From: a virus
Direction: 5' to 3' (one strand)
IMG/VR virus record: IMGVR_UViG_3300028840_004475
Coordinates: 83,748-147,747 of that record
Length of the DNA: 64,000 nucleotides
The notes beneath the pieces are model-generated. The model searched no databases. It saw only the letters and a list, made by a program, of their open reading frames with translations, and had not been told where the DNA came from. A program made the position numbers and the translations under genes. Below, one piece after another: positions 21,254-51,711 of the stretch (positions are counted from its first letter, which is position 1; each line of letters starts with the position of its first letter).

Positions 21254-21802
21254 ATGAACCCTACTCATATGTTTCTGACAAAAGGGAAGGGAGTCGCCAA
21301 AGAGAAGCTCACCAGCTTTGAGATGGCCCTCAGGAACGCAGGCATTGCACAACTCAACCTTGTGCGTGTCTCTAGCATCTTCCCGCCTCATTGCGAGATC
21401 GTGAAACGCGAGGACGGCCTCAAGTTCTTGCTGCCAGGTGACATCACGTTCGCTGTCATGTCTGACAATGCAACAGACGAGCCGAACCGTCTCGTTGCTG
21501 CATCAATCGGTCTAGCACGCCCTGCAGATGCCGCCATGTGGGGCTACTTGTCTGAGCACCATGCGTACGGGCAAACCGCTAAGAAGGCAGGAGAGTACGC
21601 AGAAGACCTCGCGGCCACAATGCTAGCCACCACCCTGGGCGTCGAGTTTGACTCCGACAAGGACTACGACGAGAGGAAAGAGATCTACAGGATGGACGGC
21701 CGCATCGTTCACAGCCGTGAGATCACACAGAGTGCTGAGGGCAATAAGGACGGTCTTTGGACTACAGTGGTGGCGGCAGCGATTCTGCTCACAAGACGTT
21801 GA
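21254..21802 (+). CDS. pdaD: Pyruvoyl-dependent arginine decarboxylase
   Basis: LTSFE.ALR.AGI...[11 protein letters not shown] self-cleavage motif, [15 protein letters not shown]. Confidence 0.9.
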
Positions 21803-29392: not shown

Positions 29393-31126
29393 ATGCAGAC
29401 CTTCACCGAGGCAACGCGCTGGCGGAAGCCGACCAAGCGCAAGGGCAACGGCCGCAACTACGCCCAGCAGCGCCAGGTCATCCCAGGCAAGAGCCGGCTC
29501 ATGACTTCGACCTCGAGCGGCACCAAGGCCTTCAAGGTGGACGACTGGGGTCGCCTCGCCCGCTTCCTGATCCTGGGAGCAGACAAGCCGACCTTCTACG
29601 CGACGAAGCGCCAGCTGGTGCGGGACAACGCGAGGGTGGTCGAGCGCTGCATCAAGGAAGACGGTATCCGTACCGTGGACCTGATCGCGGAAGTGTCGAT
29701 TCAGGGCTCGGCGCCGAACAACGACCCGGCCCTGTTTGCGCTGGCAATGTGCGCGACCCTGGGTGGCCTCCACACCCGCCAGTACGCCCTCGGGCGCCTG
29801 TCGGACGTGGCGCGGATCGGAACGCACCTGTTCCACTTCGTGGCCTACTGCGAGGGTCTCGGTCACGGCTGGGGCCGGAACATGCGACGTGCGATCCGTG
29901 GGTGGTACAACGAGAAGGCGCCGGACAAGCTGGCGTATCAGATCCTGAAGTACAAGCAGCGTGACGGCTGGTCGCACAAGGATCTGCTCGCTCTGGCTCA
30001 CCCGCGCACTTCGAACAAGGAACGTGATGCCATCTACCGGTACATCGTGGCCGGCATCGATGGTCTGGGCAAGCGTACTGTCCTGAAGCACAACGGCCGC
30101 CGGAAGGTCCGCAAGACCTACCCGGACGTGTCACGTCACCTGCCGGCGCAGATCTTCGCCGCGCACGACGTGCACAAGGTCAGCAAGCGGAAGGCCAAGC
30201 AGCTCATCGAAGAGCACCGCATGACCCATGAGATGGTGCCGAACGAGCTGAAGAACGACCCAGAGGTCTGGGAGATCATGCTCGAGACGATGCCCATCGG
30301 AGCGATGGTGCGGAACCTCGGCAAGATGACCAGCATCGGCCTCCTGGACCGGATGTCCAGGGCCTCGAAGCTGGTGATCGACCGGCTGGGCGACATGGAG
30401 CGGATCCGTCGGGCGCGTCTGCACCCGATCGAGTTCCTCAAGGCCAACCGTGTCTACGGTGCCGGCCGCGGGGACAAGGGATCGCTGTGCTGGGATCCGG
30501 TGCGCGGGATCGTCCGAGCACTGGACGACGGGTTCTACCTGGCCTTCGGCGCGATCGAGCCGAGCGGCGTGAACACTGGTCTGTTCATCGACGTCTCTGG
30601 TTCGATGGCATGGGACACCTCACGCGTGAAGTCGATGGCGAACATGACCGCACGTGAGCTGTCAGGTGCCATGGCCCTGGTGACGGCGAACGTGGAGCCG
30701 TACTGGGAGATCATCGCCTTCTCCGGCGGCTACGACTCGCTCGAGGAGATCCCGATCGAGCCCGGCATGAAGCTGGACACGGTCGTGAACAGGATGGAGC
30801 GTATGCGAGCCGGCAGCACGAACCTGTCGCTACCGTTCGAGTACGCACGTGGACGCGGTGTCCCGATCGAGACGTTTATCGTCTACACAGACAACGAGAC
30901 GAATCACTTCGGCTCGCTGCATCCGTCGGAGGCACTGCGCAGGTACCGGAAAGAGACCGGCATCGACGCGAAGCTGATCGTGGTCGGCATGGTGGCGAAC
31001 GACATCTCGATCGCTGACCCGACCGATCACGGCATGTTGGATGTAGTTGGGTTCGACACGAACGCTCCGTCAGTGATGGCGGACTTCGCGAAGGGCGCCT
31101 ACGAGATCGACGTCGAGCAGGGCTGA
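29393..31126 (+). CDS. rsr: Ro60/Rsr RNA-binding protein (TROVE + vWA)
   Basis: DDW.RL.RFLILG, ARIGTHLFHF, KYKQRDGWSHKDLL.LAHP, MP.GAM.RNLGKMT, HP, DVSGSM MIDAS motif, YTDNET, IADP.D.GMLDVVGFD. Confidence 0.96.
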   Translation: MQTFTEATRWRKPTKRKGNGRNYAQQRQVIPGKSRLMTSTSSGTKAFKVDDWGRLARFLILGADKPTFYATKRQLVRDNARVVERCIKEDGIRTVDLIAEVSIQGSAPNNDPALFALAMCATLGGLHTRQYALGRLSDVARIGTHLFHFVAYCEGLGHGWGRNMRRAIRGWYNEKAPDKLAYQILKYKQRDGWSHKDLLALAHPRTSNKERDAIYRYIVAGIDGLGKRTVLKHNGRRKVRKTYPDVSRHLPAQIFAAHDVHKVSKRKAKQLIEEHRMTHEMVPNELKNDPEVWEIMLETMPIGAMVRNLGKMTSIGLLDRMSRASKLVIDRLGDMERIRRARLHPIEFLKANRVYGAGRGDKGSLCWDPVRGIVRALDDGFYLAFGAIEPSGVNTGLFIDVSGSMAWDTSRVKSMANMTARELSGAMALVTANVEPYWEIIAFSGGYDSLEEIPIEPGMKLDTVVNRMERMRAGSTNLSLPFEYARGRGVPIETFIVYTDNETNHFGSLHPSEALRRYRKETGIDAKLIVVGMVANDISIADPTDHGMLDVVGFDTNAPSVMADFAKGAYEIDVEQG

Positions 31127-31135
31127 CACGAGTTT

Positions 31136-31196
31136 GAGGGCCGGACGGCTTGGGTTATCTTGCAACGATACCCCCCAGGCCAAACACTTTGCCCTC
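31136..31196 (+). ncRNA. Y RNA 1 (short; apical loop TTGCAAC)
   Basis: GAGGGC-C-GGA...TTT-GCCCTC bulged-C Ro-binding stem, 9 nt after the Ro60 stop. Confidence 0.8.
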
Positions 31197-31205
31197 TTCA
31201 AGTTT

Positions 31206-31324
31206 GGCTGACGTAGCGATGTGGAAGGACACATGAGAGACGGCAGTAGCCCAAGGCTAGGTGTGTGCCGCCCCGTTTAGAGGAATCCTTGGGGAGCTGG
31301 TATCAAGGCCAGTCTGCGTCAGTC
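31206..31324 (+). ncRNA. Structured RNA, partly tRNA-like, without the Ro stem
   Basis: GGCTGACGTAG pairs with CTGCGTCAGTC; internal hairpins; same AGTTT leader as the Y RNA units. Confidence 0.55.
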
Positions 31325-31341
31325 GTTCTATGGAAGGATTT

Positions 31342-31452
31342 GTGGGCCGAATGGATTGCAGGGTTATCGATGGTTCGAATCCACCTGGCGGGTCTAAACC
31401 ACCCGCTATCGCCTAGCTGGTTAAGGCACCCCTGTACCAACAACTTGCCCAC
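31342..31452 (+). ncRNA. Y RNA 2, YrlA-type (T arm - closed acceptor - D arm)
   Basis: GTGGGCCGA...TTGCCCAC; GGTTCGAATCC, TGGCGGG/CCCGCTA, GCCTAGCTGGTTAAGGC. Confidence 0.88.
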
Positions 31453-31469
31453 TTTGAATTATGGGAGTT

Positions 31470-31597
31470 GCGGGCCGTAGACTGAACGTTATCTAAGCGC
31501 GCAATTTTGCGCTTATAGCTCAGTTGGTAGAGCGCCGGGGGTAGCCTCGGAGGTCGAGGGTTCGAATCCCTAACGACGTTCTTTCAGCTTTGTCCGC
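31470..31597 (+). ncRNA. Y RNA 3 (closed acceptor - D - anticodon-arm mimic - T)
   Basis: GCGGGCCGTA...TTTGTCCGC; TAAGCGC/GCGCTTA, TAGCTCAGTTGGTAGAGC, GGGTTCGAATCCC. Confidence 0.82.
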
Positions 31598-31619
31598 GCC
31601 CTACCTATTAGAGGAGTTT

Positions 31620-31682
31620 GAGGGCCGGAAGTCTTGGGTTATCACTTCGGATGATGCTTCCCAGGACACTAACTTTGCCCTC
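31620..31682 (+). ncRNA. Y RNA 4 (short; apical TATCA-CTTCGGA-TGATG)
   Basis: GAGGGCCGGA...TTTGCCCTC. Confidence 0.8.
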
Positions 31683-31701
31683 GTTTCTATACACTGAGTT
31701 T

Positions 31702-31768
31702 GTGGGCCGGAGGCAACGGGTTACCTTTCATTTGGAGAAAACACACCCATCGCCAACAACTTGCCCAC
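31702..31768 (+). ncRNA. Y RNA 5 (short; apical TTTC-ATTTGGA-GAAA)
   Basis: GTGGGCCGGA...CTTGCCCAC. Confidence 0.8.
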
Positions 31769-31787
31769 TTCGTTTTGAGAGGAGTTT

Positions 31788-31918
31788 GCGGGCCGTACGA
31801 AATAGGTTACCAATGCAAACTGTAGGTCGCGGGTTCGAGTCCCGTCATCGGCACCATGCCGATGTAGATCAGCTGGTAGATCAACAGTGGTTACACGCCT
31901 ACTTCACTTTTTGCCCGC
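31788..31918 (+). ncRNA. Y RNA 6 (tRNA permuted at the anticodon loop; acceptor closed by ACCAT)
   Basis: GCGGGCCGTA...TTTGCCCGC; ACTGT-AGGTC-T arm-CATCGGC ACCAT GCCGATG-D arm-ACAGT. Confidence 0.87.
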
Positions 31919-31940
31919 GTTTCAAAGGACACTATGGTTT

Positions 31941-32072
31941 GAGGGCCGGACGCACGTTGGGTTATCCACTCATAATGGAGAGGTCGCAGGTTCGAATCCT
32001 GTCGTGGCTTTAGCGAGTCACGTAGCTCAGTTGGTCAGAGCGCTAAACCCCCAATGTCAACTATTTGCCCTC
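31941..32072 (+). ncRNA. Y RNA 7 (anticodon arm CAT - T - closed acceptor - D)
   Basis: GAGGGCCGGA...TTTGCCCTC; TCCA-CTCATAA-TGGA, GCAGGTTCGAATCCTGT, CGTGGCT/AGTCACG, D arm. Confidence 0.87.
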
Positions 32073-32756: not shown

Positions 32757-32840
32757 GGATCGGTAGCTGAGCTGGTTTAGCAGCGGGCTGTTAACCCGTG
32801 CCCTCGGGCTACGTGGGTTCGAGTCCCACCCGATCCGCCA
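32757..32840 (+). tRNA. tRNA-Asn(GTT), long variable arm
   Basis: Cloverleaf, loop CTGTTAA, CCA end. Confidence 0.85.
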
Positions 32841-35007: not shown

Positions 35008-35085
35008 TGCGACGTAGAGCAGTCTGGTTAGCTCAGGTGGCTCATAACCACCAGGTCGTGGGTTCAAATCCCACCGTCGCTACCA
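35008..35085 (+). tRNA. tRNA-Met(CAT), initiator-like
   Basis: Loop CTCATAA, 1:72 mismatch, GAGC/GCTC D stem. Confidence 0.88.
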
Positions 35086-35374: not shown

Positions 35375-35413
35375 AATTCTTGGGGTTGAAAGGGTAAGTA
35401 GAGATGAACAACT

Positions 35414-35485
35414 GGATCCGTAGCTCAGCGGTTGAGCAGCTCCCTCATAAGGAGAAGGGCGTTGGTTCAAATCCAACCGGGTCCA
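35414..35485 (+). tRNA. tRNA-Met or Ile2 (CAT)
   Basis: Loop CTCATAA. Confidence 0.85.
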
Positions 35486-35516
35486 TCAGACGAAGGCGGC
35501 GGCGGTAGCAATATGT

Positions 35517-50854: not shown

Positions 50855-50930
50855 CACCCGCGGTGGGACTCGAACCCACGACCTCCCAGGTCCATAGGCT
50901 GGGCACTCTACCGAACTGAGCTACGCGGGT
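50855..50930 (-). tRNA. tRNA-like element with 9-nt anticodon loop CCTATGGAC (copy A)
   Basis: ACCCGCG/CGCGGGT acceptor, canonical D arm, CCCAG/CTGGG, GTGGGTTCGAGTCCCAC. Confidence 0.8.
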
Positions 50931-51621: not shown

Positions 51622-51635
51622 ACTCTCTCCTGTTG

Positions 51636-51711
51636 CGCCCGCGGCGGGACTCGAACCCGCGACCTCCAAGGTCCATAGGCTTGGCACTCTACCTTGCTGA
51701 GCTACGCGGGC
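51636..51711 (-). tRNA. tRNA-like element with 9-nt anticodon loop CCTATGGAC (copy B)
   Basis: GCCCGCG/CGCGGGC, CCAAG/CTTGG, GCGGGTTCGAGTCCCGC. Confidence 0.8.

Follow-up and report, generated by a model that had tools for sequence, protein, structure and literature searches.

Y RNAs bind Ro60 through their terminal stem and engage a second protein with their other end (PMC4201824; PMC12135203). What role the cargo domain plays in the Y RNAs of bacteria and phages has been a question since the tRNA mimicry of the YrlA RNA was found. YrlA mimics tRNA in its acceptor, T and D arms and 'lacks the anticodon loop' (10.1101/312249); the known mimic is thus without the part of tRNA that carries identity. 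Here we analysed a stretch of 64,000 nucleotides (nt), called the window below, which forms the final 64 kilobases (kb) of the 147,747-base pair (bp) record of an uncultured phage (IMG/VR record IMGVR_UViG_3300028840_004475; the record has terminal repeats). The window contains a Ro60/Rsr gene followed by an array of seven Y-RNA units (U1 to U7), three short ones of which, U1, U4 and U5, end in a predicted hairpin that resembles the anticodon arm of a tRNA. A full-text literature search, in which the coverage of reviews was incomplete, came upon no account of Y RNAs with anticodon-type loops.

Like YrlA (RF02553; PMC4201824; 10.1101/312249), the units of the window lie beside the Rsr gene on the same strand, possess a Ro-binding-type stem and show partial tRNA mimicry in their cargo, and two of them, U6 and U7, give partial YrlA matches. 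They differ from YrlA in that the short units carry an anticodon-type arm alone, and in that the anticodon-type hairpin of U7 occupies a place at which YrlA offers no more than a poorly conserved 'V' stem-loop. The short units also resemble YrlB of Salmonella Typhimurium and Mycobacterium smegmatis and Yrn2 of Deinococcus radiodurans, which are small, Rsr-bound RNAs made of one long hairpin and found beside YrlA-type RNAs, whereas an anticodon-like loop or a tRNA identity is unreported for these RNAs (PMC4201824); YrlB was described in the same source as having no detectable homologues outside Salmonella. The nematode sbRNA model (RF01656), whose members are reported to be Y-RNA homologues, matched U4 (31617-31684, 23.9 bits) and U5 (31701-31768, 31.1 bits) through the common UGGGUUAUC and AACUUG...CC segments. 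These scores are below the cut-off of 38, and the loops of the eukaryotic RNAs are larger and not anticodon-like. The sub-threshold matches through common segments suggest that the phage handle is closer to eukaryotic Y-type RNAs than to YrlA.

Phage Ro60 proteins with adjacent small RNAs are known from the Thermus phage phiLo, whose Ro60 and Yrl1/Yrl2 RNAs assemble with host PNPase (PMC12135203), and from phage Bas63, whose Ro60-like protein gp130 counters a defence system (PMC11482910). Roles against host defence have been proposed or shown for these systems, as may apply here, but no anticodon-type cargo was described for them and they are proposed to act on PNPase/CRISPR and the Ppl system. 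In Salmonella, tRNAs with a cleaved anticodon loop induce the rsr-Y RNA-rtcBA operon, and the authors proposed the Y RNA as a possible competitive inhibitor of the anticodon nuclease (PMC7790460). Anticodon nucleases specific for a single tRNA have been reported for Cys, Ser, Leu and Trp in mycobacteria and for fMet in enterics (PMC5175351). As summarised in a citing paper, phage tRNA genes replace or escape tRNAs cut by such host nucleases (van den Berg et al. 2023, eLife 12:e85183, cited in PMC11482910). On that summary, the 37 tRNA genes adjoining the array would belong to the same conflict over the anticodon loop, with the difference that phage tRNA genes give functional tRNAs, while the short units are without acceptor, D and T arms and cannot decode.

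Anticodon-type tips on units of the array

The Ro60/Rsr gene (29393-31126, + strand) is an open reading frame of 577 amino acids with Pfam TROVE (E 2.5e-41) and vWA_Ro60 (E 2.4e-50) domains. All seven units form an array on the same strand, the first starting 8 nt past the Rsr stop codon, and the array therefore shows the same-strand adjacency to Ro60/Rsr (within about 2 kb) used to recognize Y RNAs. The units have in common TTGNGGGCCG at the 5' end and TTGCCCN'C at the 3' end, and the N:N' closing pair covaries across the seven (A:T, T:A, C:G). A Ro-binding-type motif (GNCGAAN0-1G, related to GGUCCGA) is present on the paired 5'/3' terminal stem; it is exact in U2, with CGGA replacing CGAA in U1, U4 and U5, and the consensus of relatives at this motif is GGGCCGAAG. 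U1 (31134-31198, +), U4 (31618-31684, +) and U5 (31700-31770, +) scored 58.8, 53.8 and 60.5 bits with a covariance model, R1, built from such RNAs (see below), and the fold of U1 had a z score of -2.9. Each measures 61-67 nt between its terminal-stem ends and is predicted to fold as one long hairpin, whose handle comprises the motif-bearing terminal stem and, next to it, an upper stem of 8-9 bp closing on GGGUUAYC. None of the three gave a match to YrlA (Rfam RF02553) or a tRNA gene call by ARAGORN or Rfam RF00005, and no unit of the array reached the YrlA cut-off of 69 bits. From these sequence features, U1, U4 and U5 are identified as Y RNAs and as predicted partners of the phage Ro60/Rsr.

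The preliminary description had placed a 7-nt loop shaped like an anticodon loop at the cargo position of these three units, and a CAT anticodon arm at the same position of U7 (31939-32072, +). All four hairpins were recovered at the sequence level. In U1, TATC (31156-31159) and GATA (31167-31170) flank the loop TTGCAAC (31160-31166); TATCA (31640-31644) and TGATG (31652-31656) flank CTTCGGA (31645-31651) in U4; TTTC (31726-31729) and GAAA (31737-31740) flank ATTTGGA (31730-31736) in U5; and the hairpin of U7 (31965-31979) pairs TCCA with TGGA around CTCATAA (31969-31975). With the loops numbered as in tRNA, all four carry U at position 33 (T at the second loop position) and a purine at position 37 (R37, the sixth loop position). 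The stems comprise four pairs in U1, U5 and U7 and five in U4, so that the five pairs of tRNA are not reached overall. The minimum-energy fold contained exactly this hairpin in U1 (pair probabilities 0.96-0.99) and in U5 (0.68-0.81). The earlier caveat that U4 might close as a cUUCGg tetraloop proved justified, since folding puts this structure, in which one A is bulged, at the energy minimum (-24.0 kcal/mol) and the open 7-nt loop at -23.4 kcal/mol. Shuffling of the apical segment of each unit produced a hairpin of this type, with a 7-nt loop, U33, R37 and a stem of 4 bp or more, at frequencies of 0.0013 for U1, 0.019 for U4 and 0.017 for U5. We also considered that the tips might be T loops; this was rejected, the UUCRA signature being present in none of the loops and positions 34-36 being variable.

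Comparison with the tRNA genes of the phage itself indicated which tRNAs are imitated. The loop of U1 is identical over 7/7 positions to that of the phage tRNA-Cys(GCA) (33690-33764, +; loop TTGCAAC). That of U5 agrees at 6/7 positions with the phage tRNA-Gln(UUG) (39416-39490, +; loop CTTTGGA), position 32 being the sole difference, and the loop of the U7 hairpin is identical to those of both phage tRNA-Met, at 35008-35085 (+; anticodon CAU) and 35413-35487 (both with the loop CTCATAA). The Arg-like reading of U4 held only in part: UCG does occupy positions 34-36, but the fold is ambiguous between the Arg-like loop and the UUCG tetraloop and the phage has no tRNA-Arg(UCG), making it the weakest of the assignments. 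The stems of the Y-RNA hairpins are unlike the anticodon stems of the cognate phage tRNAs and, because they bear no likeness, the arms are not simple fragments of the cognate tRNA genes. The general build of the tip is thus a stem of 4-5 bp and a 7-nt loop with C or U (or A) at position 32, U33, three free letters, R37 and A or C at position 38, and the three free letters would give the tRNA identity, namely Cys for U1 (GCA), Gln for U5 (UUG), Met for U7 and perhaps Arg for U4.

Conservation of the loop among short Y RNAs

Megablast and blastn searches with the array against a phage collection returned tRNA-like fragments only and no close relative, and a protein-guided scan of IMG/VR for relatives yielded one locus, at 40% identity. 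The comparison was therefore based on distant Y RNAs. A pattern describing the handle only was scanned over IMG/VR; many of its matches fold as Y RNAs, and the Rsr gene adjoins the RNA in 32 of the pattern loci. The covariance model R1 was built from 51 pattern matches with pairs restricted to the two handle helices, and it therefore cannot favour any tip. It gave 99 matches across the window, the IMG/VR loci and ten Rsr loci of named phages, and 50 further matches in 25 bacterial assemblies fetched with a stricter pattern, in 23 of which Rsr adjoins the RNA. After removal of near-duplicates, 115 short Y RNAs were left, 86 in the phage set and 29 in the bacterial set.

The minimum-energy apical loop measured 7 nt in 39 of the 115 RNAs, compared with 7.6 +/- 2.1 for shuffled apical segments; the next commonest lengths were 4 nt (12 RNAs) and 8 nt (11 RNAs). 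Among these seven-nt loops, 34 had U33, 28 had R37 and 26 had both, where for the last shuffles gave 1.2 +/- 1.1 and the base composition of the loops predicts 5.9. Position 32 was a pyrimidine (Y) in 29/39, and the strict pattern Y32-U33-NNN-R37-[A/C]38 occurred in 17 of the 39 against 1.7 expected. Positions 34-36 showed 17 different triplets while the flanking loop positions were constant. No U33/R37-type pattern appeared in the loops of other lengths among the 115 RNAs. A second count that does not depend on the fold gave 32/86 in the phage set versus 4.8 +/- 2.0. The preliminary description had suggested tabulating loop length, U33 and R37 in homologous short Y RNAs; on these 115 sequences the length has its mode at 7 and U33 and R37 are kept, rather than the loops varying freely. 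A generic U-turn of the UNR type was rejected as a sufficient explanation, position 35 not being enriched in purines. Three finer regularities, tentative as they come from few independent loop types, were that C32/A38 is the commonest 32/38 combination (14/26), that G37 occurs solely after G36 (4/7 vs 0/27), and that triplets ending in C are nearly absent (1/34).

Identical 7-nt loops were found where the stems differ and the handles have diverged, in genomes that each encode an Rsr protein only about 40% identical to that of the window. An Asn-like loop is common to four loci (L066, L033, L144 and L137) and a Ser-GCU-like loop to three (L026, L111 and L024), and the Gln-like U5 loop, in which A32 and G37 are unusual, recurs in L042. 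In four cases a cognate tRNA gene is present in the Y-RNA locus, the loops agreeing at 7/7 positions in three of them (Cys in the window, Ile-UAU in L035 and Ser-UGA in L076) and at 6/7 in one. Unannotated short Y RNAs were also detected just upstream of Rsr in three named phages (L126:2847-2912, L129:2451-2516 and L130:2363-2426). Mycobacteriophage Bxz1 shows an Asp-like loop in the computed fold, with a weak model match of 23.6 bits. Streptomyces phage Yaboi shows a Cys-like loop by hand pairing with one stem mismatch, the computed fold having a 13-nt loop, and Gordonia phage BearBQ has a candidate hairpin with the Gln-like U5 loop, its computed minimum-energy fold containing a 6-nt loop. 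In a Verrucomicrobia-type assembly (L144; G001:C219:19809-23337), a short Y RNA with the Asn-like loop lies directly upstream of Rsr, and the strand that encodes Rsr also carries an RtcB gene some 1.5 kb upstream of it.

That the tips, as folded in silico, are look-alikes of anticodon stem-loops and not arbitrary hairpins is well supported by these data. The excess over chance, the conservation of the loops on changing stems, their identity to loops of co-resident tRNAs and the linkage to Rsr together indicate that the tip is a selected mimic of the anticodon arm.

Possible partners of the anticodon-type arms

A subclass of Y RNAs that shows only the anticodon part of tRNA and varies in its triplets suggests that the partners are proteins that read anticodons. 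We infer that the units are expressed and that Ro60 would bind and stabilise the handle, the exposed arm then being available to a protein recognising anticodon loops. Anticodon nucleases, either toxins or defence tRNases, would be the favoured candidates, in which case the abundant Ro60 particle could act as a competitive bait and real tRNAs would be spared. Considering the tethering function of Y RNAs, the tRNA mimicry of YrlA, the Salmonella operon and the existence of nucleases attacking a single tRNA, a bait for anticodon-reading proteins is the simplest reading. We rank the decoy for anticodon nucleases first among the explanations considered, with a probability of about 0.4. RtcB, an Rnl2-type ligase and a CCA-adding enzyme were searched for in the phage and none was found; if tRNA cleavage is the pressure, the phage would thus answer with replacement tRNAs and baits instead of repair.

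Several observations weigh against the decoy. The absence of these three repair genes is one of them, and the absence of tRNA-Arg(UCG) among the phage tRNA genes is another as far as U4 is concerned. In U4 the tetraloop fold is favoured by 0.6 kcal/mol, with a probability of 0.60 for the C32:G37 pair, and position 32, which is U in U1 and C in U4, is A in U5. Across the family, where pairs were counted by script on ungapped 17-nt hairpin windows, stems are 3-5 bp long: three pairs are always present, by selection, the fourth occurs in 16/26 and the fifth in 9/26, close to chance. The anticodon type makes up only 26 of the 115 short Y RNAs, about three quarters carrying other tips. Among these is a recurrent 7-nt loop with UGAC at positions 34-37, and hence C37, which is not tRNA-like and lies outside the anticodon pattern (L058:6912-6981, L031:4506-4571 and L010:1657-1725). 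The anticodon type is moreover equally frequent in the bacterial set (7/29) and in the phage set (19/86), and it therefore fits poorly with a purely anti-defence phage device. All 115 RNAs belong to one Y-RNA subfamily, set by the search pattern, and their folds are predicted. Finally, Salmonella YrlA is not cut by the anticodon nuclease (PMC7790460), although YrlA is without an anticodon loop.

The arm might instead dock Ro60 onto another anticodon-binding protein, such as an enzyme modifying position 34 or 37, an aminoacyl-tRNA synthetase or RtcB, so that Ro60 and its nuclease partners would be brought to tRNA metabolism or the protein would be titrated. We place this second and judge it unlikely. 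The rarity of triplets ending in C, and the prevalence of triplets ending in A or U, agree with such docking; A- or U-ending triplets belong to the tRNA classes with bulky modifications at position 37. The equal frequency of the anticodon type in bacterial loci, and the locus L144 with its RtcB gene and Asn-like short Y RNA, likewise speak for it. Tethering is, in addition, the established working mode of Y RNAs: a D. radiodurans Y RNA tethers Ro60 to PNPase (PMC4201824), the phiLo particle assembles with the PNPase of its host (PMC12135203), and tRNA enzymes modify YrlA (PMC4201824). However, an arm of 3-5 bp is without most of the identity elements that synthetases use, and the phage is without RtcB. 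The short units could also be relics of tRNA left after deletion, with cargo modules drawn from tRNA genes of the neighbouring array; the 'anticodon' would then not be read, the loop would keep its tRNA look through stability, and the RNA would act via the handle only, perhaps by gating Ro60. A derivation of Y RNAs from tRNA has been proposed (10.1101/312249), 37 tRNA genes adjoin the array, the loops equal those of co-resident tRNAs as recent copying would give, and many short Y RNAs bear other loops. We nevertheless find this origin doubtful and rank it third, as identical 7-nt loops are retained although handles have diverged and stems have changed, in genomes with Rsr proteins only about 40% identical to that of the window, as positions 32, 33, 37 and 38 are kept while 34-36 change, and as the stems are unlike those of the cognate tRNAs.

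Pairing of the triplet and its neighbours with a complementary anticodon or a messenger RNA site, bringing that RNA to Ro60 for decay, seems improbable. An anticodon loop holds three bases stacked in a form suited to pairing, and Ro60 particles are reported to handle structured RNAs, but three to five pairs confer little specificity, no complementary partner pattern was found, and pairing does not need the conservation of R37 and A38. That the resemblance is a coincidence of chance hairpins is more improbable still. Points in its favour are the shortness of the loops and the fact that most stems take their 5' half from the conserved handle sequence UAUC; such an origin is nonetheless difficult to reconcile with probabilities of 0.0013-0.019 per unit in the window, and with 26 anticodon-type loops in the family against 1.2 +/- 1.1 in shuffles, or 32 against 4.8 +/- 2.0 by the second method.

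Extending the decoy reading, the Ro60 particles of phages and bacteria might act as a platform on which interchangeable anticodon arms are displayed, with every Y RNA neutralising or sensing one anticodon-specific nuclease, a generalisation that we regard as speculative and on balance rather unlikely. If it were true, the triplets of an array would report which tRNAs are attacked in the host, and the platform would provide an RNA-based counter to tRNA-cutting toxins and defences as well as a function for bacterial Y RNAs. Ro60 would thereby be tied to the conflict over tRNA cleavage, alongside phage tRNA arrays, RtcB repair and anticodon nucleases. The proposal is directly testable, as the same kind of RNA adjoins Rsr in the cultured phages Yaboi, BearBQ and Bxz1, for which laboratory hosts exist.

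Longer units and surroundings of the array

The four other units carry tRNA-like cargo. U2 (31340-31452, +; R1 38.5 bits, and fold) has a T arm and a D arm. U3 (31468-31598, +) has a tRNA-like cargo in normal order, with an Rfam tRNA score of 27.6 bits (cut-off 29) and a fold in which the body consists of an extra hairpin, a D arm, an anticodon arm with a 4-nt loop and a T arm, the acceptor-like stem running on into the Y handle. U6 (31786-31918, +) and U7 are YrlA-like, with Rfam YrlA scores of 42.5 and 49.1 bits, respectively. Examination of the fold of U6 revealed no anticodon-type hairpin, and the extra hairpin of U7 corresponds to a 13-nt insertion relative to the Rfam YrlA model. Anticodon-type hairpins are thus also found on longer tRNA-like Y RNAs, in U7 and in L091, L157 and L141. 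Two of these, the bacterial Y RNAs at L157:4141-4244 (-) and L141:2816-2924 (-), have a complete tRNA-like body in normal order with the acceptor stem fused to the handle; their bodies show a T arm and an anticodon arm of 5-6 bp, with Ile-UAU-like and Asn-like loops.

A scan of the 148-kb genome with R1 gave no match beyond the array. No sigma-70-type promoter was found for the array, and terminator-like sites were at chance level. Between U1 and U2 lies a structured element of 133 nt without a Y handle (31200-31332, +), with a closing stem of 12 bp and a minimum free energy of -52.5 kcal/mol (z -2.93; 2/200 shuffles fold as well); it gave no Rfam match. The 37 tRNA genes are downstream of the array, from position 32757. 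Among tRNA genes of the window are two near-identical ones called His with the anticodon AUG (wobble A), at 50855-50930 and 51635-51711 (-), in both of which a C:C mismatch closes the anticodon loop; about 700 bp of coding-looking minus-strand sequence separates them. Another gene of the window, at 21254-21802 (+), codes for a pyruvoyl-dependent arginine decarboxylase (Pfam PvlArgDC, E 4e-59), a metabolic function that is unusual in phages.

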